Shown here: piece after piece, positions 3,465 through 18,239 of the stretch
How positions within the stretch are numbered: position 1 is the stretch's first letter
Layout of the letters: every line of letters begins with the position of its first letter
Assembly (NCBI GenBank): GCA_964504805.1
Contig: CAZDGH010000067.1
Coordinates: forward strand, 1-18,239
Direction of reading: 5' to 3'
Length of the DNA: 18,239 nt
Source of the DNA: an uncultured Myxococcales bacterium
Lineage (GTDB): Bacteria; Myxococcota; Myxococcia; Myxococcales; Vulgatibacteraceae
Position numbers and translations under genes: made by a program
The notes under the pieces: model-generated
Told to the model about the DNA's origin: nothing
Databases searched by the model: none
Seen by the model: only the letters and a program-made list of their open reading frames with translations

Positions 3465-4310
3465 CTACGCCGGATCCCGCCCCGGGGTTACGAGCTGCGG
3501 GTGCCGGCGGATCGCCGCCTCGAGCTCGCCCGAGAGCGCCGTGCCGTGGGGCGCCCGCGCGCTCGAGCGCTCCCAGCGCGCGAGCCAGCGCGCGCCGAGC
3601 GGGCGCTCGAGCAGGTCGAGCCTCGTGGCGGCGAGCGTGGTCTCGCCCTTCCGGCCGGTCGCCGGGCCGGCGCCGACGAAGAAGCCGGCGACGAGCAGCG
3701 AGGCCCGCGTCGGCGTCGCCGCGCTGTAGGTCGCGAGCGCCGCGCCCGGCCCGTCGTGCCGGCACGCGCCGCGGATCGCCGCGAGCGCCTCCGGCGTCCA
3801 CAGGCCGCCGTCCTGCTTCGGCGAGAACGGATCGAAGAGCACCAGCTCGAAGCCGCCGCCGGCCTCGCCGAGCCTGGCGAGCGCCTCGCCCTCGAGGAGC
3901 CGCCAGGAGAGGCCGGGCGCGGCGGCGGCGCCGCCGGCGAGCAGCGCGTCGAGCTCCCGGGCGAGCGGCACGAGGAACGGGAAGCCCGCCTCGTCGGTCC
4001 GCGCCAGGCGGAGCGCGTCGAGGTCGCGCTCGAGGCTGACCAGCTCCACGTGCCGCCCGCCGGCCTCGCGCGCCGCGAGGATCACCGCCGCCGCGTTCGC
4101 CGCGGCGCCGAGGCCGACGTCGAGGATCCGGAGCGGGGAAGGGTCGGGCGCCGCGAGCCGCGCCCGCAGCCCCAGGCCGTCGACGTAGAGGCCGTTCGCC
4201 TCGCCCCACGGGCCGTCGCCCGGGTGCATCACCTCGCCGTGGCCCACGTGCCGCACGGCCTTCTCGCCGGAGCGCAGCGTGACCAGCTCGAACGCGCCGC
4301 GGCGGGTCAC
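3465..4310 (-). CDS. MnmC2/MnmD-like SAM-dependent tRNA methyltransferase (DUF752 family, mnm5s2U34 pathway).
   Basis: 281 aa. Its GTG start (4310-4308) overlaps the tgt TGA stop (4309-4307) in a GTGA arrangement. N-terminal LVTLRSGEKAVRHVGHGEVMHPGDGPWGEANGLYV resembles the MnmC2 N-terminus. LVLFDPFSPKQDGGLWTPEALAAIRGACRHDGPGAALATYSAA matches the DGFSPAKNPEMWT signature region of E. coli MnmC. The 588-aa track ORF fuses this gene with tgt. Confidence 0.7.
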   Translation of the reverse strand: MTRRGAFELVTLRSGEKAVRHVGHGEVMHPGDGPWGEANGLYVDGLGLRARLAAPDPSPLRILDVGLGAAANAAAVILAAREAGGRHVELVSLERDLDALRLARTDEAGFPFLVPLARELDALLAGGAAAAPGLSWRLLEGEALARLGEAGGGFELVLFDPFSPKQDGGLWTPEALAAIRGACRHDGPGAALATYSAATPTRASLLVAGFFVGAGPATGRKGETTLAATRLDLLERPLGARWLARWERSSARAPHGTALSGELEAAIRRHPQLVTPGRDPA

Positions 4311-5422
4311 GCTGCGAGCTTCAGCGCCCGCTGCTCCTCGAGCAGCGACGCGAAGGTGCCGGAGAGGATCGCCTCGCGCATCCGGGCGACGTGGCGCTGG
4401 TAGAAGGTGAGGTTGTGGATGGCGAGGAGCCGCCGCCCGGTGACGCGCTTGCCGGAGAGGAGGTGCTGCAGGTACGCGCGCGTGTGGCTCGTGCACGTCG
4501 CGCAGGGGCAGCCCTCCTCGATCGGCCGGTAGTCGCTCTTGAACGCCTGCCGCTTCAGCCGCATCACGCCGCCGGGCACGTAGGCGAAGCCCTGCTGCGC
4601 CATCTTGGTGGGGATGATGCAGTCGAAAATGTCGACGCCCGCCGCGACCGCCTCGAGGATGTCGCCCGGCTTGCCGACGCCCATCAGGTAGCGCGCCCTG
4701 TCCTGCGGCAGGAGCTTCGCCGTGAACGCGGCGGTGGACCAGAGCGCGTCCTTGGTGTCGCCGACGGCGAGGCCGCCGATCGCGTAGCCGTCGAACGGCT
4801 GCGCGGTGATGAAGGCGGCGCTCTCCTCCCGGAGCGCGCGGTCGAGGCCGCCCTGGACGATCCCGAAGAGCGCCTGGTCGCTGCCGACCTTGGCCCGGGC
4901 CTCGAGGCTGCGGACCGCCCAGCGGTGGGTGCGCCCCATGGCGGCGAGGAGCTGCTCGCGCGGCACCGTGGACGGCGGGCAGACGTCGAGCGCCATCATC
5001 ACGTCGCTGCCGATGGCGATCTGGGTGCGGATGCTCTCCTCGGGCGTCAGCCGCCGCTTCTTCGGCACCGGCCAGCCGCGGAAGAACGCGCCCTCCTCGT
5101 CGACCTCGCAGTCGGCGGCGAGCGAGAAGATCTGGAAGCCGCCCGAGTCGGTGAGGACCGCGCCGTCCCAGCCCATGAAGCGGTGGATGCCGCCGGCCTC
5201 GAGGAAGCGGTCGGGGCCGGGCGCGAGCCACAGGTGGTAGGTGTTGGCGAGGATCGTCCGCGCGCCGCCGGTGGCGATCTCCTGCGGCGAGAGGCTCTCG
5301 ATGTTGGCGTGGGTCGCCACCGGCATGAACGCCGGGGTCGGCATCGACCCGTGGGGCGTGTAGAGGATCCCGGCGCGGGCGCCGGTGGGATCGACGGCGA
5401 CGAGCTCGAAGCGGACGGCCAT
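4307..5422 (-). CDS. tgt: Queuine tRNA-ribosyltransferase (tRNA-guanine transglycosylase).
   Basis: 371 aa. MAVRFELVAVDPTGARAGILYTPHG...TPAFMPV. Carries the zinc site CPCATCTSHTRAYLQHL and IHNLTFYQRHVARMREAI, collinear with bacterial Tgt. ATG at 5422-5420, TGA at 4309-4307. Confidence 0.9.
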   Translation of the reverse strand: MAVRFELVAVDPTGARAGILYTPHGSMPTPAFMPVATHANIESLSPQEIATGGARTILANTYHLWLAPGPDRFLEAGGIHRFMGWDGAVLTDSGGFQIFSLAADCEVDEEGAFFRGWPVPKKRRLTPEESIRTQIAIGSDVMMALDVCPPSTVPREQLLAAMGRTHRWAVRSLEARAKVGSDQALFGIVQGGLDRALREESAAFITAQPFDGYAIGGLAVGDTKDALWSTAAFTAKLLPQDRARYLMGVGKPGDILEAVAAGVDIFDCIIPTKMAQQGFAYVPGGVMRLKRQAFKSDYRPIEEGCPCATCTSHTRAYLQHLLSGKRVTGRRLLAIHNLTFYQRHVARMREAILSGTFASLLEEQRALKLAA

Positions 5423-5500
5423 GAGGGCGCGGACTCTACCGCGGCCGCGCCGGTTGCGAAGCCCGCCTGCCTCGGGTGGGATCGGCCGAGGAGGTGGCCC

Positions 5501-6049
5501 ATGGGCCTGCTCGCCGCGCGGCTGACCGTCGCTCTCGCGCTCGCAGTCCTCGTCGCCCTCGCCGCGGGCGACGCCTCGGCCTGCTCGTGCTACGGGCGGG
5601 CCTCGTTCCGCGTGGCCGCGCCGCGCGCTGCGCTGGTGATCCGCGCCGAGATCCTGGTCCACGGCGGCGGGACCGACGCCGACCCGAACACCTTCATGGA
5701 CGTCCGCGTCGACGAGGTGCTCCGCGGCTCGACGGCGGCGAAGACGGTCCGGGTGTTCGGCTCCAACGGGTTCAACTGCGGGGCGTGGCTGGCCAACTAC
5801 GAGGACGGCACGAGCTGGCTGCTCGCGCTCCGTCCGCTGGAACGAGAGCCGGGAGACGTGGGCGCGGTGGAGCCCTGGCTGATGTCGGGCTGCGCCCATC
5901 TCGGGGCGCTGGTCGAGGGCGAGCTGGTCAGGACCGACGCCGAGGTGATGTCGCTCTTCGAGGTGCGCGAGCTCGTCTCGCCGAGACCTCCGTCCCGGAC
6001 GCCGTCGCCTCGCGTGGCGGCCCCCGCGCCCGCTCCGCCGGACCTCTAG
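5501..6049 (+). CDS. Secreted protein with a TIMP-like (N-TIMP / NTR, OB-fold) domain. The mature N-terminus is predicted to be Cys-Ser-Cys.
   Basis: 182 aa. GAGGAGGTG RBS 5 nt before the ATG at 5501. Signal peptide MGLLAARLTVALALAVLVALAAGDASA, with predicted cleavage after ASA, exposes CSC. Mature CSCYGRASFRVAAPRAALVIRAEIL parallels TIMP-2 [22 protein letters not shown]. Four Cys in the N-domain fall at mature positions 1, 3, 66 and 104, against TIMP 1, 3, 72 and 101; VRVFGSNGFNCGAWL...SWLLAL parallels IRFVYT...VCG...EYLIAGK. The C-terminal tail is Pro-rich. The call is an inference from motif and spacing only. Confidence 0.6.
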   Translation: MGLLAARLTVALALAVLVALAAGDASACSCYGRASFRVAAPRAALVIRAEILVHGGGTDADPNTFMDVRVDEVLRGSTAAKTVRVFGSNGFNCGAWLANYEDGTSWLLALRPLEREPGDVGAVEPWLMSGCAHLGALVEGELVRTDAEVMSLFEVRELVSPRPPSRTPSPRVAAPAPAPPDL

Positions 6050-6636
6050 GCGCCCCGCGCGCCGAGCTGTCCGAGGAGCCCGCGCAGGATCCGGTGGGTC
6101 ATTCCCCAGATCGTCTCACCGTCGAAGCGCCAGGCGGCGAACCGTACCGGCAGCGGCCCGAGCCTGTGCTCGTGCTCGGCGTCGTGGGCGCCCGACGCGA
6201 GCGCGCCGAGGGGCACCCAGAAGGCGCGCACCACCTCGTCGGACAGCTCGATCCCCGGCCGCGGCGCGTCGAGGGCGAAGACCACCGGCGTCACCGCCAT
6301 CGGCCGCAGGCCGCCGTGCTCCTTCGCGGGCAGGTCGTCGAGCCGCCCGAGCACGCGCGCGCCCTCGAGCCCGACCGCGACCTCCTCTCGCGTCTCGCGC
6401 CGGGCCGTCGCCTCGAGGTCGGGATCGTCCGGTGACGCCCGGCCGCCGGGCAGCGCCACGTGCCCCGACCACGGATCGCCGCGCCGCTCCGCGCGCCGGA
6501 CGAGCAGCACCTCGAGCGCGTCGCCCTCGGGCCGCAGGATCACCGCGACCGCGGCGCGCACCGGCACGAGCGGGATCGAGAGGCGGCCGCGGCGGCGGAG
6601 CTTCTCCTCGAGGTGCGCGAGCGCGGCGCGGGGCAT
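6046..6636 (-). CDS. NUDIX hydrolase, CoA pyrophosphatase (NudL-like).
   Basis: 196 aa from MPRAALAHLEEKLRRRG. NUDIX box GGRASPDDPDLEATARRETREEVAV. The NuCoA-like motif LLVRRAERRGDPWSGHVALPGG sits upstream of the box. ATG at 6636-6634. The TAG stop overlaps the stop of the convergent 5501..6049 gene. The 253-aa track ORF is a 5' shadow extension. Confidence 0.75.
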   Translation of the reverse strand: MPRAALAHLEEKLRRRGRLSIPLVPVRAAVAVILRPEGDALEVLLVRRAERRGDPWSGHVALPGGRASPDDPDLEATARRETREEVAVGLEGARVLGRLDDLPAKEHGGLRPMAVTPVVFALDAPRPGIELSDEVVRAFWVPLGALASGAHDAEHEHRLGPLPVRFAAWRFDGETIWGMTHRILRGLLGQLGARGA

Positions 6637-6710
6637 GGGTCGATCCTGCCCGTGAGCGGCGCACGCGCAAGTGGCGCCGCCGCGGCGCCCGTGAAAGCAT
6701 CCGGCCTCCG

Positions 6711-8525
6711 ATGGCGCTCCCCGACCGACGCGCGCGAACCGCGCCGGCCCCACGCCCGGTCCCCGAGGCGGCGAGGCCGAAGGTGCTCGCCGGCGCGCCT
6801 CGCCCACCGCGACGGCCGCTGCCCCGCTGGCTCCCCCGGCTCTGGATCGCGACCGGCGCCGTCGCCGCCGCGATCGCCGGGCTCGAGTGGGGCTTCGACG
6901 TCGCCTCGCGCCCCGCGGTGCTCCTGGCGGTGACGGTCCTCGACGGCGTGCTCGTCGGGCTGCTCGCCGCGGAGCTCGGCCTGCGCCTCCAGGCTGCCAC
7001 CGAGCGCCTCGGCCTCGTCCGCGACCGCTGGGGCGACGTGCTGGCGCTCGCGCTCTGCCTGCTCCTGGTCGTGCTGGGGCTGCCGCGCGCCGCCGGCGCC
7101 GTCGCCGTCCTGCGCGCGCTCGGCCGCGGCCTGCTCGCCGCGCGACACGTCCCGCTCTTCGGCTCGGCGTTCGCGCTGCTCCAGGCGCGGCCGCTGGTGT
7201 CGCTGATCGCGTCGTTCGCGGTGGTGATCGCCTTCGGCACGCTGGCGCTCACGTTCCCCGCGGCGACGGCCGACCACGCCGGCGCGCCGCTCCTGACCGC
7301 GTTCTTCACCGCCACCTCCGCCACCTGCGTCACCGGGCTCGCCGTGGTGGACACCGCCACCTACTGGTCCCGCTTCGGCCAGCTGGTGATCCTCGGGCTC
7401 GTCCAGATCGGCGGCCTCGGGATCATGACCATCACCACCGCGCTCTCGATGGCGTTCCGCTCCACGATGACGCTGAAGGAGCGCGGCGCGATCCAGGAGA
7501 TGTACGAGGAGGAGACGATCCTCGGCTTCCGGAGGCTCATCGTCCGCGCGGTCGGGATCACCCTCGGCCTCGAGGCGCTCGGCGCCGCCGCGCTCTACCT
7601 GCGCTTCGACGCCTACGCCGACGTCCTCGGCCTCCGCGGCGAGGGGACGGTGCTCTTCCACGCGGTGTTCCACGCGGTCACCGCCTTCTGCAACGCCGGC
7701 TTCGCGCTCCACTCCGACAGCCTGGTGCGGTTCGTCGGCGACGTGCCGGTGAACCTCACCGTCGCGGTGCTGGCGATCGCCGGCGGCCTCGGGTTCCCGG
7801 TGATCGCGAACCTCCTGCACCTCGACCTGCTCCGCGCGCCGCGGCTCTTCTTCCGGCGGCTGCCGGTGCACGACCGGATCGTCTGGGTGGCGACGGCGGC
7901 CCTGCTCGCCGGCGGCACGCTGGCCTACCTGGTGGTGGAGTGGAACGGCGTGCTCCACGGCCTGTCGTTCCGCGAGCGCCTGGTGGCGGCCTCGTTCGCC
8001 TCGGTGACGACGCGCTCGGCCGGGTTCAACACCGTGGACTACGGCCTGCTCACCCAGCCCGGGGTGATCCTCACCTGCGCCCTGATGTTCATCGGCGGCT
8101 CGCCGGGCGGCACCGCCGGCGGCGTCAAGGTCACCACCGCCGCGGTGATGCTGCTCGCGGTGCGCGCGATCCTCCACGGCCGGCCCGACGTGGAGGTGAT
8201 GGGCCGCGAGCTGCCCCGGGCGACGATCTACCGGGCGGTCGCGGTGATCTTCATCAGCGGGGCGGGGCTCACCGCGCTGCTCGTCGTCCTCTTCGCCGTC
8301 GAGCGCCATCCGTTCGACCAGCTGCTCTTCGAGGCGGTGTCCGCGTTCGCCACCACCGGCCTGTCGATGAACCTCACCCCGAAGCTCTCGGCGGCCGGGC
8401 AGCTCGTGGTCGCCTTCCTCATGTTCGTCGGGCGCCTCGGGCCGTTCACCCTGGCGCTGGCCATCGGCTTCTCGCGGCACGCCGCGGCGTACCGCTTCCC
8501 GTCCGGCAAGGTCGTCGTCGGCTGA
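6711..8525 (+). CDS. trkH: Trk/Ktr-type K+ uptake transporter, membrane subunit (TrkH/KtrB family).
   Basis: About 605 aa. Selectivity-filter-like glycine motifs are repeated across the pseudo-repeats (GLVQIGGLGIMT, TTRSAGFNTV, FIGGSPGGTAGGVKVTT, FATTGLS). It has many TM helices, with two extra N-terminal helices as in the TrkH D0 domain. The ATG at 6711 has a weak RBS and is preceded by a Pro/Arg-rich low-complexity stretch, so the start is uncertain. TGA at 8523-8525. Confidence 0.8.
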   Translation: MALPDRRARTAPAPRPVPEAARPKVLAGAPRPPRRPLPRWLPRLWIATGAVAAAIAGLEWGFDVASRPAVLLAVTVLDGVLVGLLAAELGLRLQAATERLGLVRDRWGDVLALALCLLLVVLGLPRAAGAVAVLRALGRGLLAARHVPLFGSAFALLQARPLVSLIASFAVVIAFGTLALTFPAATADHAGAPLLTAFFTATSATCVTGLAVVDTATYWSRFGQLVILGLVQIGGLGIMTITTALSMAFRSTMTLKERGAIQEMYEEETILGFRRLIVRAVGITLGLEALGAAALYLRFDAYADVLGLRGEGTVLFHAVFHAVTAFCNAGFALHSDSLVRFVGDVPVNLTVAVLAIAGGLGFPVIANLLHLDLLRAPRLFFRRLPVHDRIVWVATAALLAGGTLAYLVVEWNGVLHGLSFRERLVAASFASVTTRSAGFNTVDYGLLTQPGVILTCALMFIGGSPGGTAGGVKVTTAAVMLLAVRAILHGRPDVEVMGRELPRATIYRAVAVIFISGAGLTALLVVLFAVERHPFDQLLFEAVSAFATTGLSMNLTPKLSAAGQLVVAFLMFVGRLGPFTLALAIGFSRHAAAYRFPSGKVVVG

Positions 8526-8541: not shown

Positions 8542-9225
8542 GTGTCCAACGAGCTCGTGGTCGTCATCGGCATGGGGCAGTTCGGCGAGGTGGTGGCGAG
8601 GACGCTCGGCGGCCGCGGCCGCGAGGTGCTCGTCCTCGACCGCTCCGAGGAGCGGATCGAGGACCTCAAGGACGCGGTGCCCCGCGCCGTCCGCGCCGAC
8701 TCCACCGACGAGGGCGCGATGCGCGCGCTGGCGGTGGCCGAGGCGAAGACCGCGGTGGTGGCGCTGGGCGAGGAGGACTTCGAGGCGGCGGTGCTCACGG
8801 TCGCGCTGCTCAAGCAGCTCGGCGTGCCGCAGATCATCGTCCGCGCCTCGTCCCGCACCCACGGCCGGATCTTCGAGCTCGTCGGGGCGACGCGGGTGGT
8901 GTTCCCGGAGCTGCAGATGGGCGAGGTGCTGGCGCGGTCGCTCCTCGGCCGCGGCGTCCACGCCTACTTCGCGCTCGAGACGGGCCACACCCTCGCCGAG
9001 GTCGAGGTCCGCCCGGAGTGGGCGCACAGGAGCCTCGCCGAGCTCGAGCTGCGCAAGCGCTACGGCGTGCACGTGCTGGCGATCCGGCGGCCGGTCTCCG
9101 CCGGCGACGGTACCCTCCGCGACCACACCGTGGAGCTGCCCGCGCCGACCGAGGCGCTGCGCACCGGCGACCACCTCGTGCTCGTCGGCACGCAGGACGC
9201 GGTCTCGGGGCTCACCGGTGCGTGA
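8542..9225 (+). CDS. trkA: K+ transporter peripheral RCK subunit (TrkA/KtrA; RCK_N NAD-binding domain plus RCK_C).
   Basis: 227 aa. LVVVIGMGQFGEVVARTL...GREVLVLD is a Rossmann GxGxxG motif, followed by an RCK_C-like C-terminus (LAELELRKRYGVHVLAIRR...GDHLVLVG). GTG at 8542 with a GGAGGAT RBS 5 nt upstream. It lies 16 bp after the trkH stop, so the two are probably an operon. Confidence 0.85.
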   Translation: MSNELVVVIGMGQFGEVVARTLGGRGREVLVLDRSEERIEDLKDAVPRAVRADSTDEGAMRALAVAEAKTAVVALGEEDFEAAVLTVALLKQLGVPQIIVRASSRTHGRIFELVGATRVVFPELQMGEVLARSLLGRGVHAYFALETGHTLAEVEVRPEWAHRSLAELELRKRYGVHVLAIRRPVSAGDGTLRDHTVELPAPTEALRTGDHLVLVGTQDAVSGLTGA

Positions 9226-10957
9226 GGCCTGGGTCACCGCCGCGCTGCTCCTGGCCGCGGGCTGCGTCGACCCGGTGTGCCGGGAGGACGCGGACTGCGC
9301 GGACGGTCTCGGCTGCGTGGAGGGCGCGTGCGTCGAGGCGAGCGCCCAGGAGGCCTGCGGCGACGGCGTCGTCGAGGCGGGTGAGGACTGCGACGAAGGC
9401 GCCGCCAACGGCGCGCCGGAGAGCGCGTGCGGCCCCGGCTGCCTCCAGGCCCGGTGCGGCGACGGCGTGGTGCAGCCGTCGCTCGGCGAGAGCTGCGACG
9501 AGGGCGAGGACGCGAACTCGGCCGGCGGCGGCTGCGGCCCGCGCTGCGTGCCGGTCGCGTGCGGCGACGGCGTCGCCGAAGCCGCCGAGGCGTGCGACGA
9601 AGGCCCCGAGGCGAACCTGCGCGGCCGACACTGCCGCGCCGACTGCACCGCGCCGAGCTGCGGCGACGGCGTCGTCGACGCGCCGTACGAGGACTGCGAC
9701 GACGCGGCGGCCTCGACCGACTTCTCGGAGACCTGCACCGGCGCCTGCCGCGTGCCGTCGTGCGGCGACGGCGTGATCACGCGGGCGACGGAGGCGTGCG
9801 ACGGCGGCCCGGGCTGCACGGCCGCGTGCGCCTTCGAGGGCTGCGGCGCCGTCGAGCTCGTGGCGGGCGCCGGGTTCACGCTGGTACGCCGCGCCGACGG
9901 CGTGCTGCGGGCCGCCGGCAGCGACGCGCAGGGCGAGCTCGGCCGCGTCGACCGCGGCGCGGACGTCCTCTCGCCCGAGGACCTCGACGGCGCCGGCCTG
10001 GTGCAGCTCGCCGCGGGCGAGGCGTTCGTGATCGCGCGGACCGCCGCGGGCACGGTGGTGACCTGGGGCTCGAACGTCGCCGGCCAGCGCGGGCTCTCCG
10101 TGCTCGAGGAGCGCCCGGGCCGCTCGGAGGTGCCGGGGCTGCCGCCGATCGTCGACGTCGCCGCCGGCGCGGTGTCCGCGTTCGCGCTCGACGAGGACGG
10201 CGCGATCTGGAGCTGGGGCGGCGCCTACTACCGCGAGCTCGGCGGCGACGACGGCGTCGTCGAGGCCTGCCCGATCGGCCACCGCTGCCGGCCCGAGCCA
10301 CGGCGGCTCGAGGTCGCCGGCGTGCGCTTCGTCGACGTCGCCGCCGGCCCGTACACCGCGCTCGCGATCGACGAGCGGGGCGAGCTCTGGGGCTTCGGCC
10401 AGGCGGCGTTCGGCCAGCTCGGCCACGCCGTGGCCGAGGCGTGCCCGGACGGCGTGAACGTGTGCGTGCGCGCGCCGGACCGGGTGGGCGTCGGCGGCGT
10501 GGTGCGCGCCGCCGCCGGCCAGGAGTTCACGCTCTTCCTCGACCGCCGCGGCGCGCTCCGTGGCCTCGGCCGCATCGCCTACGCCGGCGCGCCGGCCGAC
10601 GCGCCCGAGCTCGTGGTGTCCACGCCCACCCCGATCCCGCTCGCGAGCGGCGCGCGGATCCACGACGTCGCCGCGGGGCCGTACCACGCCCTCGTCCTCG
10701 ACGAGGCCGGCGTCGTCCACGCCGGCGGCGGCGACGACGACGGCCGCCTGGGACGCGGGCCGTTCGTCGGCGTGACGCCGCTCGCGGAGGTGCCGGGTCT
10801 CGGCCGCGCCACGCAGGTGGCGGCGGCGCTCGCGCACTCGGGGGTGCTCCTCGACGACGGCTCGGTCGTCGCGTTCGGCACGGGCGCGAACGGCCAGCTC
10901 GGGCAAGGCGACGGCGCGCCGTCGGGCACGCCGGTGGCGTTCCCCGTCTGCCCCTAG
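9218..10957 (+). CDS. Lipoprotein with 5 N-terminal Myxococcus cysteine-rich repeats (CGDGVV..E.CD.G type), followed by RCC1-like beta-propeller repeats.
   Basis: 579 aa. Its GTG at 9218 overlaps the trkA stop by 8 nt. A short lipoprotein-type signal M/VREAWVTAALLLAAGC has a lipobox-like LAAGC. There are five ~34-aa repeats, each starting CGDGVV/A/I....E.CD.G. Six to seven RCC1-type blades follow (WGSNVAGQRG, WSWGGAYYRELG, WGFGQAAFGQLG, GRIAYAG, GGGDDDGRLG, FGTGANGQLGQG). TAG at 10955-10957. The 1356-aa track ORF is a shadow fusion. Confidence 0.7.
   Translation: MREAWVTAALLLAAGCVDPVCREDADCADGLGCVEGACVEASAQEACGDGVVEAGEDCDEGAANGAPESACGPGCLQARCGDGVVQPSLGESCDEGEDANSAGGGCGPRCVPVACGDGVAEAAEACDEGPEANLRGRHCRADCTAPSCGDGVVDAPYEDCDDAAASTDFSETCTGACRVPSCGDGVITRATEACDGGPGCTAACAFEGCGAVELVAGAGFTLVRRADGVLRAAGSDAQGELGRVDRGADVLSPEDLDGAGLVQLAAGEAFVIARTAAGTVVTWGSNVAGQRGLSVLEERPGRSEVPGLPPIVDVAAGAVSAFALDEDGAIWSWGGAYYRELGGDDGVVEACPIGHRCRPEPRRLEVAGVRFVDVAAGPYTALAIDERGELWGFGQAAFGQLGHAVAEACPDGVNVCVRAPDRVGVGGVVRAAAGQEFTLFLDRRGALRGLGRIAYAGAPADAPELVVSTPTPIPLASGARIHDVAAGPYHALVLDEAGVVHAGGGDDDGRLGRGPFVGVTPLAEVPGLGRATQVAAALAHSGVLLDDGSVVAFGTGANGQLGQGDGAPSGTPVAFPVCP
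9353..9840 (+). repeat. Tandem in-frame ~102-nt coding repeats (5 units) encoding the Myxococcus Cys-rich repeat module.
   Basis: tgcggcgacggcgt recurs at about 9356, 9458, 9560, 9659 and 9761. These are imperfect coding repeats, not CRISPR, because the spacers are themselves homologous. Confidence 0.6.
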
Positions 10958-12503: not shown

Positions 12504-12681
12504 CATCTGCGTTTCAGGCAGACGGCAGGTGGACCGTGACGTGGTCCGGCCGGGTGGGACCCGAGGTGCGGAAGCCGGACGTGGCGACGCGGACCGGGGA
12601 CGCGGGCGGGAGCGGCGCGGAGCCCCTCCTTCCCGTGCCCGGCCGCGGCCCACCGGGCCCGCGGGGCACTCCCACCGAGAC

Positions 12682-13215
12682 ATGAAAGCTCGGCTTCTCT
12701 ACGATGCGCGCACCATGCGCGCCCTCCTCCTCGCCCTTCCTCTCCTCGTCCTCGGCGCCTGCGCCGGCGACGAGCCGGTGCGTGAGAACCCGCTCGGCAC
12801 CTGCGCCACCAACGACGAGTGCCACACCGAGGAGTACTGCGGCGGCTTCCTCGGCGGCGACTGCGGCACCTCGGGGCAGCGCGGCGGCTGCACCCTGCGG
12901 CTCACCGAGTGCGATCCCGTCGACGAGCCGGTCTGCGGCTGCGACGGCAGCGTCTACCCGAGCACCTGCGAGGCCGCGCGCAACGGCGTCGCCCTCTCCG
13001 CCCTCGGCGGCTGCGAGGTGCCCGCCGGCCGCTTCGCCTGCGGCCCCCGCCTCTGCGACGCCGCCACCGAGTACTGCCGCGACGCCGGCTCGTCCGTCGG
13101 CTGCCAGCCCCTCCCCGACGGCTGCGACGGCACCGACTGCGCCTGCTTCGCCGGCGACCTGCCGGGCTCCTGCACGTCGTGCGCGGTCGCTGGAGGCCTG
13201 GTGCTGGACTGCTGA
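12682..13215 (+). CDS. Cysteine-rich lipoprotein with a Kazal-like (serine protease inhibitor-type) domain.
   Basis: 177 aa. The start is ATG at 12682, or alternatively the in-frame ATG at 12715. Lipoprotein signal MRALLLALPLLVLGAC. The mature part has about 24 Cys. The segment GGCTLRLTECDPVDEPVCGCDGSVYPSTCEAARNGVALSALGGC fits Kazal spacing C-x6-C-x7-(PVCG.DG..Y)-C-...-C. TGA at 13213-13215. The 485-aa track ORF is a shadow extension. Confidence 0.65.
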   Translation: MKARLLYDARTMRALLLALPLLVLGACAGDEPVRENPLGTCATNDECHTEEYCGGFLGGDCGTSGQRGGCTLRLTECDPVDEPVCGCDGSVYPSTCEAARNGVALSALGGCEVPAGRFACGPRLCDAATEYCRDAGSSVGCQPLPDGCDGTDCACFAGDLPGSCTSCAVAGGLVLDC

Positions 13216-13218
13216 AAG

Positions 13219-13378
13219 CAGGCTCCAGGCTCCAGGCTTCAGGCTCCAGCCAGCAGGTAGCTCGGCGCTCCGCGCCTCGCGCTCCCCAGCTGGCGAGCTT
13301 GCCGGGGCCCCCAGCCTGGTGCCGCCGATACGAAGCGGTGGGTGCTGGAGCCCGGAGCCTGGAGCCTGGAGCCTCAGG
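13219..13378. repeat. Copy B of the ~155-bp terminal-inverted-repeat intergenic element (same family as 291..446).
   Basis: Left arm ggctccaggctccaggct at 13221-13238. Right arm ggagcctggagcctggagcc at 13356-13375. Core gcaggtagctcggcgctccgcgcctcgcgctc is identical to copy A apart from one or two substitutions. The gaagcggtgggtgctggagc block is shared. It starts 4 nt after the stop of the Kazal-like gene. Confidence 0.6.
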
Positions 13379-13823
13379 CCCGGAAGGCCTGCTACACCGC
13401 GGGAGCCCGGCGCGGGCGCCGCCGCACCGGGGGGACGGGCTGGGGCGGGCCGCGAGGGTGGGTTGCCGAACGGCGGCCACGACGCCCCGTGGACGGGGCG
13501 GCGCCCGCGCGCGGGCTCCGGGACGGGGGGGCGCCCGGCCGGAGCCGGCAGCGCCGCATCCCTCACGACGAGCGGCCTCGGGCTTCGGCCGTCGCGTGTC
13601 TCTGTATTCGGATTCTGTGTACACGTCTCCCGTCGCGCCGCGGCTCTCGCCGTGCGCCGATCGCAGCCCGTGCGATCCGGGTCTCTCTCTGCCGCGCCGG
13701 AGCCGGTGCCCGTGGGCCCTTGGCTCCCCCGCCTCACCGCCGCCGCCCGCCGCGTGCGCGCCCGGGCCGAGCCCAGGAACGTCGAAGGCCGGGTCCCCTT
13801 CGTGGGAGCCCGGCCTCCGAGGA

Positions 13824-13840
13824 CCAGCGAGAATCGCTGG
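13824..13840. terminator. Small perfect hairpin ccagcga-gaa-tcgctgg, 6 nt 3' of the candidate 42-aa ORF on the minus strand.
   Basis: 7-bp stem with a 3-nt loop, seen directly. A candidate terminator for the FHA/small-ORF transcript. Confidence 0.3.
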
Positions 13841-13845
13841 GAAAC

Positions 13846-13974
13846 CTAGGGGACCGGCCCTCCCGAGGGGAAGAAGCCCAGGTCGCGGATCGTGCCGCTG
13901 GCCGCGTCGTACGGGCACGGGCCGGCGGGCGTCGCCGCGTTCCTGCCGTCGCGCTGTCCGTGGTTCCACGCCAT
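13846..13974 (-). CDS. Candidate small protein of 42 aa (MAWNHGQRDGRNAATPAGPCPYDAASGTIRDLGFFPSGGPVP), downstream of the FHA gene on the same strand.
   Basis: ATG at 13974-13972 with a GAGGTGG RBS about 4 nt upstream. 40 of 42 codons end in G or C, close to the bias of real genes in this genome. TAG at 13848-13846, followed by the hairpin. There are no homology clues, so the call is weak. Confidence 0.25.
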   Translation of the reverse strand: MAWNHGQRDGRNAATPAGPCPYDAASGTIRDLGFFPSGGPVP

Positions 13975-14079
13975 GGCCACCTCGTCTCGATCCGACTGCG
14001 GCGCCGGCGGGGACCGCCGACGAACGAACGGGAAGCTAGCAGCGACGACCCGAAAAGTCAACCAACCGCTGTCTCGGAT

Positions 14080-14922
14080 TTACGCGCCCTCGCGGTAGGT
14101 GAACACCGCACCGCCCACCTCGAGCAGGTCGCCGTCGCCCAGGGGCGCCTTCTGGACCCGGGCGCCGTTCACCTTCACCCGGCCGAGGAGGCCGAGCTTC
14201 CGCACCGCGTAGCCGCCGTCGCCCCGGCGCTCCAGGGTCGCCGCCTCGTCGGCGCCGACCTCGGGCACGCGGAGCTGGCAGCGGTCCGAGGCGCCCAGCA
14301 CGTTCGCGGCGTGGCGGAGCGCGTGGACCCGCACCGGCGTCACCTGGTGCTGCACCAGGTGCGGCTCGAGCAGCGCGGCCTTCTCCCGCCGCAGCCGCGC
14401 GAGCTCGGCAGGGGCGATGTGGCGGGTGGTGCTCCCGCTCGCGTCCTCCCGCCCGGCGGCCTCGAGCGGCTCGAAGCTCCTCGACAGCGCCTCGTAGTCG
14501 AAGCGCCGCGCCTCGAGCGTGATCAGCTCCGCCTCTCGCTCCTCGCCGCCGGAGGGGCCGTCGTCGAGGACCAGCTCGCCGGTGACCAGCGGCAGCTCCT
14601 CCTCGACGAGCGCGGTGTCCGGGATCGACTCCATGACGCCCTGCCGGTAGCGGACGACGTGGGCGCCGAGCTCGATCCGGTCGCCGTCGGCGAGCGGCCG
14701 CTTGTACTCGCGGCGGCCGTTCACGAAGGTGCCGTTGGTGGTGCCGAGGTCCTCGAGCCACATCGCGCCGTCCTTGCCGTACACGCGGGCGTGCCGGCGC
14801 GAGACGATCGGATCGTCGAGGCGGATGGCGGCGCCCGCCTCGCGGCCGAGCACCATGCACGAGCCGTCCCAGACGACGTCGCGCAGCTTCTTCCCGTCCT
14901 TCACGATCTCGAACGTCGCCAT
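14080..14922 (-). CDS. Protein with two FHA (forkhead-associated, phospho-Thr binding) domains.
   Basis: 280 aa from MATFEIVKDGKKL. ATG at 14922-14920 with a GGGAGGTGG RBS 5 nt upstream. N-terminal FHA: VLGREAGAAIRLDDPIVSRRHARVY...LEDLGTTNGTFVNGRR...GDRIELG. C-terminal FHA: LGASDRCQLRVPEVGADEAATLERRGDGGYAVRKLGLLGRVKVNGARV...GDLLEVGGAVF. It is divergent from the Ser/Thr kinase gene. Confidence 0.8.
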   Translation of the reverse strand: MATFEIVKDGKKLRDVVWDGSCMVLGREAGAAIRLDDPIVSRRHARVYGKDGAMWLEDLGTTNGTFVNGRREYKRPLADGDRIELGAHVVRYRQGVMESIPDTALVEEELPLVTGELVLDDGPSGGEEREAELITLEARRFDYEALSRSFEPLEAAGREDASGSTTRHIAPAELARLRREKAALLEPHLVQHQVTPVRVHALRHAANVLGASDRCQLRVPEVGADEAATLERRGDGGYAVRKLGLLGRVKVNGARVQKAPLGDGDLLEVGGAVFTYREGA

Positions 14923-15035
14923 GGAGCCACCTCCCGGTGCGTGTGCGGGGCGCGGACACCCGTAGCAGAAGCTCGCGGCTCGACGACATCCCATGCCCCG
15001 GATCGGGCCGCCGCGACCGGGCTAACATCGCGGCC

Positions 15036-18000
15036 GTGCCGACGACCGCCCGCGCCGCGCCGCCGCCGCTCCTCGGGCGGTACCGCGTCCTCGCGCCGCT
15101 CTCCGCGGGGCCGGACGGCGCCGCCTACCAGGCGCGCGACGAGCGGGACCGGAGCCCGGTCGAGGTGCGGAGGCTGTCCGCGGCCGCGGCGGCGTCGCTC
15201 CGCGCGCGACTCCCGCTGCTCGCGCGCGCGGGGCACCCGGGCGTGCTGCGCGTGCTCGAGGCCCGGCTCGACGGCGCGGAGCGGATCGTCGTGGTCGAGG
15301 CCGTCGGACGCACGCTCGCGGAGCTCGAAGGGCGCGGCCCGCTCCTCCCGCCGGAGCTGCGGCTCCGCCTGGCACCGCTCGCCGAGGCGCTCGCGGGGGC
15401 GCACCGCCTCGGCCTCGTCCACGGGCGCCTCGACGCGGGGGCGGTGCGGCTGCGCGACGACGGGTCGCCGTGCCTCGACCTCACCGGCCTGGACGTGGGC
15501 CGCCCGGGGCGATCCGGCGCACGGGCGCCCGCGCACGCCGACGAGGGCCCCGCCGGGGACGTGCGCGCGCTCGGCCTGCTGGCGCGGGAGCTCGCCGGGG
15601 AGGGCCTCGCGCAGGACGGCGCGCTGTCCGCCCTCGTCGGCGAGCTGCTGGCGCCGGCGCCCGAGGATCGGCCGCCGGCCGCCGAGGTGGCGCGGCGGCT
15701 CGCCTCGGCCCCCGAGCCGCGGACCCTGGTGGAGCCGCCGGCCGCAGAGGCCGAGTCGGAGGACCCGAGGACGCTCGGCCGCTTCGAGCTGCTCGAGAAG
15801 CTCGGAGAGGGCGCCATGGGCCGCGTCTACCGCGCCCGCGACGTCGCCGACGGCTCCGTGGTCGCGGTGAAGGTGCTCCTGCCCGAGCTCGCGCGCAGCG
15901 CGCAGCACCTGAGGCGCTTCGAGCGCGAGGCGCGGCTGCTCGCGCGGCTCCGCGGCCCGAACGTCGCCGCGCTGCTCGAGGTGAACCGCGATCGCGGCCG
16001 GCACTTCCTAGCCATGGAGTACGTGGAGGGCCCGACGCTCTCGCAGCTCCTCCGGGAGCGGGGCCGCCTCGGCGTCGAGGAGGCGCTGTCTCTCGCCACC
16101 GATCTCGCCCTCGCCGACGTGCACGCGCTCGGGATCGTCCACCGCGACGTGAAGCCGGGGAACGTGCTCGTCTCCGCCCGCGAGGGCTCGGCGAAGCTCG
16201 TGGACTTCGGGGTGGCAAGGCTCGCCGAGCCGGACGGCCCCGAGGCCGACCTCACCCGGGCCGGCGCGCTGGTCGGCTCGCCGCACTTCATGTCGCCGGA
16301 GCAGTGCGCCGGCCTGCCCGCCGACGCGCGCGCCGACGTCTACGCCCTCGGGGTGACGCTCTTCCGGGCGCTCGCCGGCCGGCTGCCGTTCGAGGCCGCA
16401 GACGCGCGCGGCGTCATCGCCCAGCACCTGTCGGCGCCGCCGCCGTCGCTCCGCGCGCTGGCGCCGGAGGTCGGGGACGGCGTCGTCCACCTCGTGGCGC
16501 GCATGCTGGCGAAGGAGCCCGCCGAGCGTCCGGCCGACGGCGCCGCGGTGCTCGACGAGCTGCTCCGGCTCCGCGGCCGCGCGCCCGCCGGCGCCGGGGC
16601 CCACCCCGCCGCGCCCGCCGGCGCGGGTCCGGCGCTCCGCTACGAGTTCGAGTGGGCGCTCGCGGTCCCGCCGGCGCGGCTCTGGCCCTTCGTCGCCGAC
16701 ACCAACCGCGTCAACAAGGCGATCGGCCTCGAGGCGTTCGCGCTGACCTACGACGGACCGCCGGACGCCCGCGTGCAGCGGGCGCGCACGCGGCTCTCCG
16801 GCCTGGACCTCTCCTGGGTCGAGCACCCGTTCGAGTGGGTCGAGGGGCGCCGCTTCGGCGTCGTCCGCGAGTTCTCGGAGGGGCCGTTCACCTGGTTCCG
16901 CAGCGTCGTCGACCTTCGCCCGGATCCAGAGGGCGGCACGAGGCTCGTGCAGGTGATCGAGGCCGAGCCCCGCGGGCTCGTCGGCCGCGCGGCGGCGGCG
17001 CTCGAGATCGGCGTCAAGGCGAAGCGCAACCTGGGGAGGCTCTACGAGCGCGTCGCCGAGCTGGCCGCCGCGGAGCCGGGCCCGGAGACGCGGGTGCTCG
17101 CGTCGCCGTTCGAGGAGCCGCACCGGCTCTCCGCGCCGGCGCGGGCGCGGCTCGACCGCCACGTGGCGGCGCTGCTGGCGCAGGGCGTCGACGCCGACGT
17201 GGTGGAGCGGCTCTCGATCTACGTCGCCTCGGCGCCGGCCGCCGAGGTGGCGCGGCTCCGTCCCCGCGAGCTGGCGCGGCGCTTCCGCGTCGAGGAGGCG
17301 CCCGTGGTCGAGGCCTGCCTCCGCGCCGCGGCCGAGGGGATGCTCGCGCTCCGCTGGGATCTGCTCTGCCCGGTGTGCCGCGTCTCCTCCGGGTTCGTGG
17401 AGACGCTTCGCGCCGTGCGCGAGCACGCCCGGTGCGAGGCTTGCGGCGTCGACTTCCCGCTCGACCTCGGGCGGTCGGTGGAGCTCGCGTTCCGGGTCTC
17501 CCACGAGCTGCGCGAGGCGGACCACGCGACGTACTGCTCCGGCGGCCCTGCGCGGCTCCCGCACGTGGCGCTGCAGGTGCGGCTCGCGGCGGACGAGCGC
17601 CTCGAGGTCGAGCTCGGGCTCGGCCGCGGCACGTACCGGCTCGCGAGCCCGGCGCTGCCGACGGCGGCGCTGGTGCGGGTGGCGGGGCAGGAGGCGCAGC
17701 CGCGGCTCGAGCTCCCGCTCGGTCCGCCCGCCTCGCCGGCGCCGCTCGGGCTCCGGGAGGGCCGGCAGCTCCTCGTCCTCGAGAACCGCGCCGGCCGCGA
17801 GCTCCTGGTGCGGCTCGAGCGCACCGCGGGCCGCGACGACGCGCTCACCGCGGCGGAGGCCGCGAGCTCGCCGCTGTTCCGCGCGCTCTTCCCCGCGGAG
17901 CTGCTCGAGCGCGGGCGGCTCGTGCAGCTCGAGGGCGTGACGCTCCTCGCCGTCGACGCCGCCGACGCGCCGGCGCTCTACCGCGCCCTGGGCGAGCCGG

Positions 18001-18239
18001 CGGCGTTCGCGCGGCTCCACGAGCTGCGGGAGAGGGTCGCGGCCCACGGGGCGTCGCACGGCGGCGCCGCGGTGAAGGCGCTCGGCGACGGCCTCCTCCT
18101 CGCGTTCGGCGACGCGGCCGCGGCGGGCGCCGCCGCGGTGGGGCTCCGCGGGCTCCTCTCGGGCGGCGCCTCCCTCGAGGGCGCCGGCGTCCGCGCCGCG
18201 GCGGTCCGCGGCCCGGCGCTCGTCGCCCCCGGCGACGGC
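15036..18239 (+). CDS. Large multidomain Ser/Thr protein kinase, 3'-partial. Order: N-terminal degenerate pseudokinase-like domain, canonical Hanks kinase domain, SRPBCC-like and CxxC..CxxC zinc-ribbon-like region, class III adenylyl/guanylyl-cyclase-like domain.
   Basis: The frame is open from the GTG at 15036 to the window end, at least 1067 aa. The start is uncertain because the RBS is weak. Pseudokinase region, about 15036-15700: LGRYRVLAPLSAGPDGAAYQA replaces GxGxxG; VEVRRL replaces VAIK; LVHGRLDAGAVRL replaces HRDxKxxN; no DFG. Active kinase, about 15780-16560: LGEGAMGRVYRA, VAVKVL, IVHRDVKPGNVLV, DFGVAR, GSPHFMSPEQ. Then RLWPFVADTNRVNKAIGL (SRPBCC-like), CPVCR (about 17365) and CEACG (about 17440). 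Finally VTLLAVDAADAPALY...HGGAAVKALGDGLLLAFGDAAAA (about 17920-18130), collinear with the cyclase homology-domain core including both metal-binding Asp positions. Confidence 0.85.
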   Translation, partial: MPTTARAAPPPLLGRYRVLAPLSAGPDGAAYQARDERDRSPVEVRRLSAAAAASLRARLPLLARAGHPGVLRVLEARLDGAERIVVVEAVGRTLAELEGRGPLLPPELRLRLAPLAEALAGAHRLGLVHGRLDAGAVRLRDDGSPCLDLTGLDVGRPGRSGARAPAHADEGPAGDVRALGLLARELAGEGLAQDGALSALVGELLAPAPEDRPPAAEVARRLASAPEPRTLVEPPAAEAESEDPRTLGRFELLEKLGEGAMGRVYRARDVADGSVVAVKVLLPELARSAQHLRRFEREARLLARLRGPNVAALLEVNRDRGRHFLAMEYVEGPTLSQLLRERGRLGVEEALSLATDLALADVHALGIVHRDVKPGNVLVSAREGSAKLVDFGVARLAEPDGPEADLTRAGALVGSPHFMSPEQCAGLPADARADVYALGVTLFRALAGRLPFEAADARGVIAQHLSAPPPSLRALAPEVGDGVVHLVARMLAKEPAERPADGAAVLDELLRLRGRAPAGAGAHPAAPAGAGPALRYEFEWALAVPPARLWPFVADTNRVNKAIGLEAFALTYDGPPDARVQRARTRLSGLDLSWVEHPFEWVEGRRFGVVREFSEGPFTWFRSVVDLRPDPEGGTRLVQVIEAEPRGLVGRAAAALEIGVKAKRNLGRLYERVAELAAAEPGPETRVLASPFEEPHRLSAPARARLDRHVAALLAQGVDADVVERLSIYVASAPAAEVARLRPRELARRFRVEEAPVVEACLRAAAEGMLALRWDLLCPVCRVSSGFVETLRAVREHARCEACGVDFPLDLGRSVELAFRVSHELREADHATYCSGGPARLPHVALQVRLAADERLEVELGLGRGTYRLASPALPTAALVRVAGQEAQPRLELPLGPPASPAPLGLREGRQLLVLENRAGRELLVRLERTAGRDDALTAAEAASSPLFRALFPAELLERGRLVQLEGVTLLAVDAADAPALYRALGEPAAFARLHELRERVAAHGASHGGAAVKALGDGLLLAFGDAAAAGAAAVGLRGLLSGGASLEGAGVRAAAVRGPALVAPGDG

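Follow-up and report, generated by a model that had tools for sequence, protein, structure and literature searches.

A secreted protein gene in a myxobacterial contig

The DNA analysed here (referred to as the window) is a stretch of 18,239 nt from an uncultured Myxococcales bacterium (contig CAZDGH010000067.1 of assembly GCA_964504805.1). At positions 5501..6049 of its + strand it carries a gene which codes for a 182-aa precursor. The product is very probably a secreted protein with two disulfides, a TIMP/NTR-type OB-fold, and Cys1 as its mature N-terminus (TIMP: tissue inhibitor of metalloproteinases). It belongs to a bacterial family which is widespread and uncurated.

Because the window has a G+C content of 76% and contains many overlapping open reading frames (ORFs), coding potential was checked by codon position. 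In the frame of the 5501-6049 ORF, the G+C content is ~0.95 at third and ~0.55 at second codon positions across ~5490-6030. The signal switches at ~5420, where a divergent gene for tRNA-guanine transglycosylase (TGT) ends, and at ~6040, where a convergent NUDIX hydrolase gene ends. Public gene calls on three contigs (NCBI and Logan assemblies) give an identical 182-aa product. The ORF is thus a real gene of the + strand. A first-pass annotation of this DNA had given coordinates and residues for the ORF; all of them are correct, and translation reproduces the 182-aa protein. The features of the gene are as follows, with the basis of each assignment in brackets.

5488..5494, + strand: Shine-Dalgarno sequence GAGGAGG, 6 nt 5' of the ATG (read directly in the sequence)
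5501..6049, + strand: coding sequence of the 182-aa precursor, stop codon TAG at 6047-6049 (translation, plot of G+C at third and second codon positions, public gene calls)
5501..5581, + strand: predicted Sec-type signal peptide, residues 1-27, MGLLAARLTVALALAVLVALAAGDASA (sequence and family-wide -3/-1 pattern)
5582..5590, + strand: Cys1-Ser2-Cys3 of the predicted mature chain, codons 28-30 (near-invariant C1 and C3, which hhalign pairs with C1 and C3 of TIMPs)
5582..5980, + strand: predicted TIMP-like/NTR-type OB-fold domain, mature residues 1-133 (predicted structure)
5777..5779, + strand: codon of Cys66 (precursor residue 93), the putative partner of Cys1 (joint loss of C1 and C66; follows the WGDNGxxC block, which is FGSNGFNC here)
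5891..5893, + strand: codon of Cys104 (precursor residue 131), the putative partner of Cys3 (Cys in 170/170 aligned rows; retained alongside C3 in domains lacking C1 and C66)
5981..6046, + strand: C-terminal tail PRPPSRTPSPRVAAPAPAPPDL, Pro/Ala/Ser-rich, of low complexity and outside the fold (translation)

The 22-residue tail is devoid of Cys and is missing from most relatives; third-position G+C remains high until ~6030.

The predicted mature N-terminus

The signal peptide is composed of an n-region with a single positive charge (R7), a 15-residue h-region (L8-A22), and the c-region GDASA. Ala occupies both -3 and -1 of the predicted cleavage site, which reads A-S-A/C-S-C (the slash marks the predicted cut). 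This arrangement is shared by the relatives described in the next section. Of 141 non-redundant family members, 110 have Ala at -1, and 128 have one of Ala, Ser, and Gly there. At -3, 85 have Ala and most others V, S, L, or T; -2 is unconstrained. At +2, Ser is found in 88 and Thr in 9 members (97/141 for both). TIMPs likewise carry Thr or Ser at mature residue 2. The pattern argues strongly that the family follows the (-3, -1) rule of signal peptidase I, with the cut predicted immediately before C-x-C. The first-pass annotation had placed cleavage directly before Cys1, and the family-wide upkeep of this rule supports that placement.

Lipoproteins, too, are marked by a Cys at +1 that follows a hydrophobic signal peptide. 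If the protein were one, Cys28 would be a lipobox Cys, cleaved by signal peptidase II and acylated, with the OB domain tethered to the membrane. This would exclude a TIMP mechanism because the alpha-amino group and the thiol of Cys1 would be blocked. Two relatives are automatically named 'Lipoprotein' in UniProt, and the published TIMP-like protein of Listeria is one (PMC8235301). However, the A-S-A-C of the 182-aa protein, with Asp at -4, is no L-[AS]-[GA]-C lipobox, nor does it match the pattern [LVI][ASTVI][GAS]C at -3 to +1. The strict lipobox fits only 6 of the 141 members, which frequently carry D, E, H, Q, R, Y, or W at -2. In addition, the covariation of C1 with C66 (see below) implies that the Cys1 thiol is engaged in a disulfide. 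We thus consider a lipoprotein highly improbable.

Family members in which Cys1 is replaced hold the same register after the signal peptide (e.g., A-Y-A/S-S-C and A-L-A/T-T-C). The fact that they begin at the same position indicates that the zero-length N-terminus is probably conserved in itself.

A bacterial family in about ten phyla

An exhaustive HMMER search with the mature domain as query against 1.84 billion cluster representatives (cut-off E <= 1e-3) returned 82 proteins with 25-42% sequence identity. Nearly all of these matches begin at mature residue 1 of the query, which falls at residue 20-35 of the matched protein, just behind its signal peptide. A scan of one genome per GTDB species, using a pattern derived from a 12-sequence sub-alignment, yielded 80 confirmed loci, which are spread over about ten bacterial phyla. 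Among the taxa represented are Acidobacteriota, Cyanobacteria, Bdellovibrionales, Eisenbacteria, Spirochaetia, Desulfobacterota-type lineages, Nitrospirae, Methylomirabilales, and Alpha- and Gammaproteobacteria. Many loci are from Bacteroidota, among them cultured Chryseobacterium, Lacinutrix, Aquimarina, and Gaetbulibacter. About 140-150 non-redundant relatives, drawn from some ten phyla, conserve A-x-A/C-x-C and all four Cys, which argues that the TIMP-like pattern is more than chance.

The near-invariant positions in an alignment of 80 members (A1) are C1, C3, F9, M39, G49, G60, G63, C66, W79, and C104. The consensus reads A-x-A/C-S-C-x-W-x-G-P-F-L-x-V-A-P...L-V-V-R-G-K-V...M-D-V-E-V-x-E-V-L-K-G in its N-terminal part and I-R-V-W-G-D-N-G-x-x-C-R-P-Y-V...F-P-x-G-T-E-W-x-F-A-L...I-S-x-C-G-x-Y-W-L in its later part. 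The most conserved block of the family, W-G-D-N-G-x-x-C66-R-P-Y, adjoins the Cys that is probably paired with Cys1. In TIMPs, the corresponding location is that of the second ridge segment.

The family has escaped curation. When the 80 members were scanned against Pfam and NCBIfam, no model covered the domain in any of them. Searches with the single sequence against Pfam, NCBIfam, and PDB sequences yielded only noise (MauE, DARPins, flavodoxin, via the Ala/Leu-rich signal peptide). A word-seeded homologue search retrieved only the 182-aa protein itself and, with the family profile, 11 proteins with uninformative names. Relatives are named 'hypothetical protein', apart from the two cases of 'Lipoprotein' mentioned above and one 'Tissue inhibitor of metalloproteinase' (see below). 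Weak matches to the Pfam model RNA_pol_Rpb2_4 occur in 21/80 members of A1 (best E 0.006); this is probably a spurious motif resemblance.

Varied C-terminal modules are fused to the domain in family members, namely TonB_C, type IX secretion system (T9SS) sorting domains, or a conserved ~160-aa domain. The latter defines a two-domain sub-family, in which the TIMP-like domain precedes a ~160-aa domain without Pfam match (...GR.EDLARLTPPLHFVPNPREIEGWHF...FIFSPEVG...); its members are P0007, P0018, P0023, P0032, P0041, P0043, P0049, P0079, and P0054 and those at loci L018, L020, L023-L025, L028, and L030. Tandem side-by-side copies of the family gene are found in several Flavobacteriales metagenome-assembled genomes (MAGs; L062, L063, L067, L068, L083).

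Cysteine covariation and predicted disulfide topology

The predicted mature chain contains exactly four Cys, at positions 1, 3, 66, and 104, and these are the near-invariant cysteines of the family. For an analysis of covariation, all collected family domains were aligned to the profile, of which 152 were covered at both ends. All four Cys are present in 143 of these. In eight, C1 and C66 are jointly lost while C3 and C104 are kept, and a single loss of C1 or C66 was never observed among the 152. An apparent loss of C3 in L080 is an alignment offset, as its sequence reads C-S-C. The eight domains without C1 and C66 span at least four lineages (two cyanobacteria, a 'T-T-C' group, a two-domain protein, and Thiomargarita). 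Members noted with this joint loss are P0009, P0040, P0042, P0033, L012, L013, and L053, with P0033 having two tandem domains which both lack C1 and C66.

The fact that C1 and C66 are lost only together, and this in at least four lineages, supports the disulfides Cys1-Cys66 and Cys3-Cys104, which would correspond to the C1-C70 and C3-C99 disulfides of TIMP-1 and thus to the TIMP topology. The same pairing had been proposed in the first-pass annotation from Cys spacing. In terms of the six-Cys NTR pattern (1-4, 2-5, 3-6), the 182-aa protein has the equivalents of 1-4 and 2-5, a connectivity that we infer from covariation alone. With only four Cys, it does not have the third N-domain disulfide, which is of the Cys13-Cys124 type. 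A Cys4 metal site was considered as well and was rejected, since the cysteines are lost pairwise.

An additional Cys at mature position 10-13 is found in 16/150 non-redundant members, mostly from Flavobacteriales but also from one unrelated lineage. A late Cys, located ~35 residues beyond the fourth, accompanies it in 15 of the 16 (and, by inspection, also in the sixteenth) but occurs in just 5 of the 134 others (Fisher p 1.5e-15, not corrected for phylogeny). The position of the late Cys matches the third N-TIMP/NTR disulfide (C13-C124 in TIMP-1). The two cysteines covary, and one branch of the family thus has the full six-Cys NTR signature (e.g., C-S-C-F-G-P-D-T-F-C at the N-terminus). This sub-family (C1, C3, C10-13, ~C65, ~C110, ~C146) comprises loci L048 and L061-L083 and protein P0034.

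A Flavobacteriaceae variant opens with C-x-C-x-C-x-x-x-C and has Cys at 1, 3, 5, 9, 75, and 112 (loci L041, L047, L049-L052, L056-L060, L069-L071, L074, L075, L081). The opening suggests an extra local disulfide within the N-terminal segment.

Predicted fold

An AlphaFold2 model was built without templates from the 80-sequence alignment and has a mean predicted local distance difference test score (pLDDT) of 88.3 and a predicted template modelling score (pTM) of 0.83. A model from the single sequence (pLDDT 43) was useless. In the confident model, a barrel of five strands is preceded by an N-terminal helix (residues 9-15) and followed by a C-terminal one. The first-pass annotation had named structure prediction as a check of the TIMP resemblance, and the model is indeed an OB-fold whose best matches are TIMPs and other NTR-type domains. 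The structure comparison scores are listed below.

N-TIMP-3 (3CKI_B; 110 residues, 3.2 A): 10.9
agrin NtA: 10.2
PCOLCE NTR: 9.3
complement C3 C345C: 9.2
TIMP-1: 8.9
meteorin NTR: 8.8
C4/C5 C345C: 8.1-8.6
hookworm netrin-like ES-2: 7.6
best ordinary OB-folds (DUF2500/YhhM, LEF-3, SilB, RecO, CTC1, others): 7.5 or less

A Foldseek search against PDB gave agrin NtA, TIMP-1/-2, C345C, or PCOLCE for all of ranks 1-33 (best E 5e-4, TM about 0.6). In the structural alignments, sequence identity is 11-18%. The model thus points to an NTR-type OB barrel which has members of this superfamily as its closest structural neighbours and which appears superimposable on N-TIMP. A search of the model against a viral fold library gave no significant match.

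An OB barrel with a C-x-C could also be a periplasmic metal-handling or redox protein related to the CusF/SilF type, in which the N-terminal amine, the C-x-C thiols, and Met39 would bind Cu, Zn, or Ag or shuttle disulfides. Met39 is among the near-invariant positions of the family. We consider this reading improbable. An Ntn-hydrolase, whose nucleophile would be the N-terminal Cys, does not agree with the fold and was discarded.

Similarity to TIMPs at the sequence level

The human N-TIMP-1 to -4 sequences were validated against PDB chains and database TIMPs and aligned to the family profile with hhalign. The resulting alignment has a probability of 55% (P 1.2e-4, 55 columns) and places in register C1-x-C3, the LVVRGKV/VVIRAKAV strand, and the MDVEV.EVLKG/YEIKQIKMFKG strand. 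It reproduces a parallel drawn in the first-pass annotation between AAPRAALVIRAEIL and the TIMP segment AFCNxDxVIRAK. The profile alignments do not bear out a further match proposed there (CG...W/YLLA, following the third Cys), and the Gly after Cys66 is atypical for the family, which has Arg at this position in 89% of relatives. A forced global hhalign did not pair the third and fourth cysteines with those of TIMPs; because of this mispairing, only the N-terminal 55 columns are counted as sequence evidence. Below threshold, Pfam TIMP matches occur in 3/80 members (best E 0.028) and agrin NtA matches also in 3/80 (best E 0.018). The sequence evidence is weak but consistent with homology to TIMPs. 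It is the fold, the N-terminal position, and the cysteine wiring that carry the TIMP/NTR argument.

The resemblance could be convergent or an artefact of modelling, the family then being a generic secreted OB-fold family of unrelated origin. The absence of any TIMP/NTR match at threshold at the level of hidden Markov models, the later cysteines left unpaired in the global profile alignment, and the low identity in the structural alignments would all fit this. They leave unexplained, however, that C-x-C at the mature N-terminus coincides with the same order and pairing of two disulfides (three in the sub-family) and that the LVIRA strand is in register. Moreover, the model is template-free, and the scores show a clear gap between TIMP/NTR domains and other OB-folds. 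Convergence or artefact is therefore very hard to credit.

Comparison with known systems

Previous work treats TIMPs as eukaryotic or metazoan (PMC4860685, PMC9409782), and our full-text literature searches found no paper on a bacterial family of this kind. The only published bacterial precedent that we found is Tim (LMRG_00714) from Listeria monocytogenes, reported in 2021, which has a TIMP-like region predicted by Phyre2 and a metzincin partner, Mtz (PMC8235301). Tim is a lipoprotein (lipobox LTAC) whose TIMP-like part starts ~50 residues into the protein and is released through cleavage by the adjacent metzincin; mtz-tim is a conserved gene pair of phage origin, and the authors of that study state that TIMP-like proteins from bacteria were not on record before (PMC8235301). 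Going by this description, the family described here differs from Tim in its whole architecture, as its predicted cleavage by signal peptidase I is right at C-x-C and a partner gene is absent: neither an adjacent metzincin nor a lipoprotein precursor was found, with no peptidase in the window and no recurrent metzincin among the nearest and second-nearest neighbours at the family loci. The claim of the first-pass annotation that TIMP/NTR-like domains are essentially eukaryotic agrees with the literature searched (PMC4860685, PMC8235301) but has to be qualified by Listeria Tim and by one UniProt-named family member. The latter is UniRef A0A085Z1W5 from Chryseobacterium formosense, which bears the automatic name 'Tissue inhibitor of metalloproteinase' and shows that similarity at the superfamily level had already been registered.

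The N-domain of animal TIMPs (PF00965, MEROPS I35; N-TIMP-3 3CKI, TIMP-1 1UEA) resembles the bacterial protein in being secreted, with a mature start of Cys-Ser/Thr-Cys which is predicted to be exposed by signal peptidase. The likely disulfides have the same connectivity (1-66 and 3-104 here, 1-70 and 3-99 in TIMP), the LVIRA-type first strand is in register, and a sub-family has a third pair equivalent to 13-124. In contrast to TIMPs, the protein is bacterial, has just two disulfides, and ends in a 22-residue Pro-rich tail in place of the C-terminal TIMP domain with its three further disulfides. It also shows the 11-18% identity in structural alignments mentioned above, no Pfam match at threshold, and a family motif of its own, WGDNGxxCRPY.

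The other NTR modules compared are agrin NtA (PF03146, 1JB3), PCOLCE NTR (1UAP), complement C345C, and the NTR domains of meteorin and sFRP (PF01759). Eukaryotic NTR modules are mostly internal or C-terminal, and the first Cys of most of them is thus not a free N-terminus, whereas the bacterial domain is always N-terminal after the signal peptide. TIMPs differ from all other NTR modules by a free N-terminal Cys that is braced by the 1-70 disulfide. To our knowledge, C-x-C exactly at the mature N-terminus is found in eukaryotes only in the inhibitory TIMPs.

Two bacterial inhibitor types invite a functional analogy. The serralysin inhibitors Inh/AprI (MEROPS I38) are periplasmic, and their free N-terminus enters the active site of a metzincin and contacts the zinc. 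Ecotin is a stand-alone periplasmic inhibitor without a cognate protease gene nearby. The family may be likened to the former in N-terminus insertion and to the latter in being encoded by a stand-alone gene.

Inhibitor or binding module

The best explanation as a whole, to which we assign a probability of roughly 0.5, is that of an exported TIMP/NTR-fold protein acting as a stand-alone metalloprotease inhibitor. Signal peptidase I would remove residues 1-27, so that the mature chain starts with Cys1-Ser2-Cys3. Through disulfides Cys1-Cys66 and Cys3-Cys104, the N-terminal segment would be anchored in the 133-residue OB barrel at the loops that follow strands C and E. A rigid ridge at the N-terminus would insert into the active-site cleft of a zinc metalloprotease, where the free alpha-amino group and the carbonyl of residue 1 would chelate the zinc, with residue 2 (Ser) pointing at S1'. 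The protein would act in the periplasm or outside the cell by an ecotin-like logic, in which the gene of the target protease need not be adjacent. We favour an inhibition of zinc metalloproteases that is TIMP-like and depends on the N-terminus, because the TIMP-specific free N-terminal Cys is conserved and because the most conserved block adjoins the Cys presumably paired with Cys1; taken as a claim of its own, it falls just short of even odds.

Several observations weigh against an inhibitor of this type. Eight relatives survive without Cys1 and Cys66. The 182-aa protein reads FGSNGFNCGAW where the family has WGDNGxxCRPY, its most conserved motif, and the Gly after Cys66 is peculiar to it; its specificity, or even its function, may differ from that of the family core. 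Residues 1-10 have the lowest model confidence of the N-terminal half (pLDDT 73). The top Foldseek match is agrin NtA, a non-inhibitory NTR module, and most NTR modules (agrin NtA, C345C, the C-terminal domain of netrin) are binding modules rather than inhibitors. At the sequence level, the hhalign probability is only 55% and limited to the N-terminal 55 columns. The Pfam TIMP/NTR comparison proposed in the first-pass annotation gave no match at threshold (PF00965 is absent for the 182-aa protein even at E <= 10), and no TIMP was retrieved when the family profile was run against PDB sequences with hmmsearch. Finally, the 18-kb window contains no metalloprotease or other peptidase gene, and the family gene has no conserved neighbour in the 80 loci, where the largest cluster (11/80) reflects lineage-specific synteny.

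Part of this evidence would fit an NTR-type module with the same fold which binds a protein, a glycan, or an envelope component without inhibiting anything, and in which C-x-C serves as a structural staple. Non-inhibitory NTR modules are numerous among the top matches besides agrin NtA, protease linkage is absent from all 80 loci, the C-terminal fusions are varied, and Cys1 and Cys66 are dispensable in the eight exceptional members. However, a purely structural C-x-C leaves unexplained its exact placement at +1 across some ten phyla (about 140 sequences) and the retention of the register where Cys1 is replaced. Conservation is strongest beside Cys66, which would be linked to the N-terminus. 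We thus regard a mere binding module as unlikely, though it has to be reckoned with.

What has been found appears to be a bacterial version of a fold and a mechanism class already known, and it is widely distributed and uncurated. The literature treats TIMPs and NTR modules as eukaryotic, mainly metazoan, while a bacterial family from about ten phyla keeps the C-x-C hallmark, the predicted wiring, and the predicted fold. Should this be borne out, it would bear on the origin of the NTR/TIMP module. The family would represent a new class of bacterial metalloprotease inhibitors or otherwise a new N-terminus-dependent function, and it would provide small disulfide-stabilised scaffolds for inhibitor engineering. 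A broader idea, which we hold to be doubtful, is that the TIMP principle (a disulfide-braced N-terminal Cys which chelates the catalytic zinc) is ancient, bacterial, and phylum-spanning rather than a metazoan invention. The family would then consist of stand-alone metalloprotease inhibitors, and the eukaryotic NTR/TIMP module would descend from it or share an ancestor with it. The question of inhibition is directly testable with a 133-residue protein.

Gene neighbourhood

The genes upstream of the target gene in the window code for an SDR protein, an AlkZ-like glycosylase, MsrB, a methyltransferase, and TGT. Downstream are genes for the NUDIX hydrolase, TrkH, TrkA, an RCC1/DUF4215 repeat protein, a Band-7 protein, an FHA protein, and a Ser/Thr kinase. 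This set confirms the statement of the first-pass annotation that no protease gene is adjacent. The following genes are given for context.

4307..5422, - strand: TGT, divergent upstream neighbour, context only and without functional link to the target gene (Pfam PF01702, E 3e-131; same neighbour on two other contigs)
6046..6807, - strand: NUDIX hydrolase, convergent downstream neighbour, context only (Pfam PF00293, E 2e-16; frame plot)
9197-10954: RCC1-repeat protein with a DUF4215 motif
14083-14994, - strand: FHA protein, beside the kinase gene
14901-18239: large Ser/Thr kinase with DUF5939, cut by the end of the window

The G+C content of the window, together with the DUF4215/RCC1, FHA, and Ser/Thr kinase genes, is consistent with a myxobacterial setting. 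The stop codon of the target gene (TAG, 6047-6049) overlaps that of the NUDIX gene (6046-6048, - strand) in the palindrome CTAG. The region 12634-14000 has an ambiguous or weak codon-position signal, and its ORFs 12634-13212 and 12704-13846 have no Pfam match.

For the 80 loci, all ORFs within +/-6 kb were clustered by blastp, and the 147 nearest and 129 second-nearest neighbours were scanned against Pfam. The 11-locus cluster mentioned above consists of closely related Flavobacteriales MAGs which share a synteny of aspartyl-tRNA synthetase, M48 peptidase, and iron permease. No Pfam family is enriched among the nearest or second-nearest neighbours (maximum 5 and 4, respectively; Peptidase_M48 in 3), and no metzincin recurs among these 276 proteins. 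The family gene is thus a stand-alone gene, and its context speaks neither for nor against an inhibitor role.

Two lineage-specific associations were noticed. In 7-8 Desulfobacterota-type loci, a ~230-aa secreted protein without Pfam match is encoded directly upstream on the same strand (L018:686-1378, L020:76-780, L023:158-835, L028:2023-2685, L030:2278-2976, L033:7301-7963); it may be a lineage-specific partner of the family gene. In one lineage, a cation-diffusion-facilitator gene (Cation_efflux and ZT_dimer) is located directly 3' of the family gene (L003:5584-7140, L087:6001-7454, L088:269-1722), with a gene overlap of 4 nt in L087 and L088.

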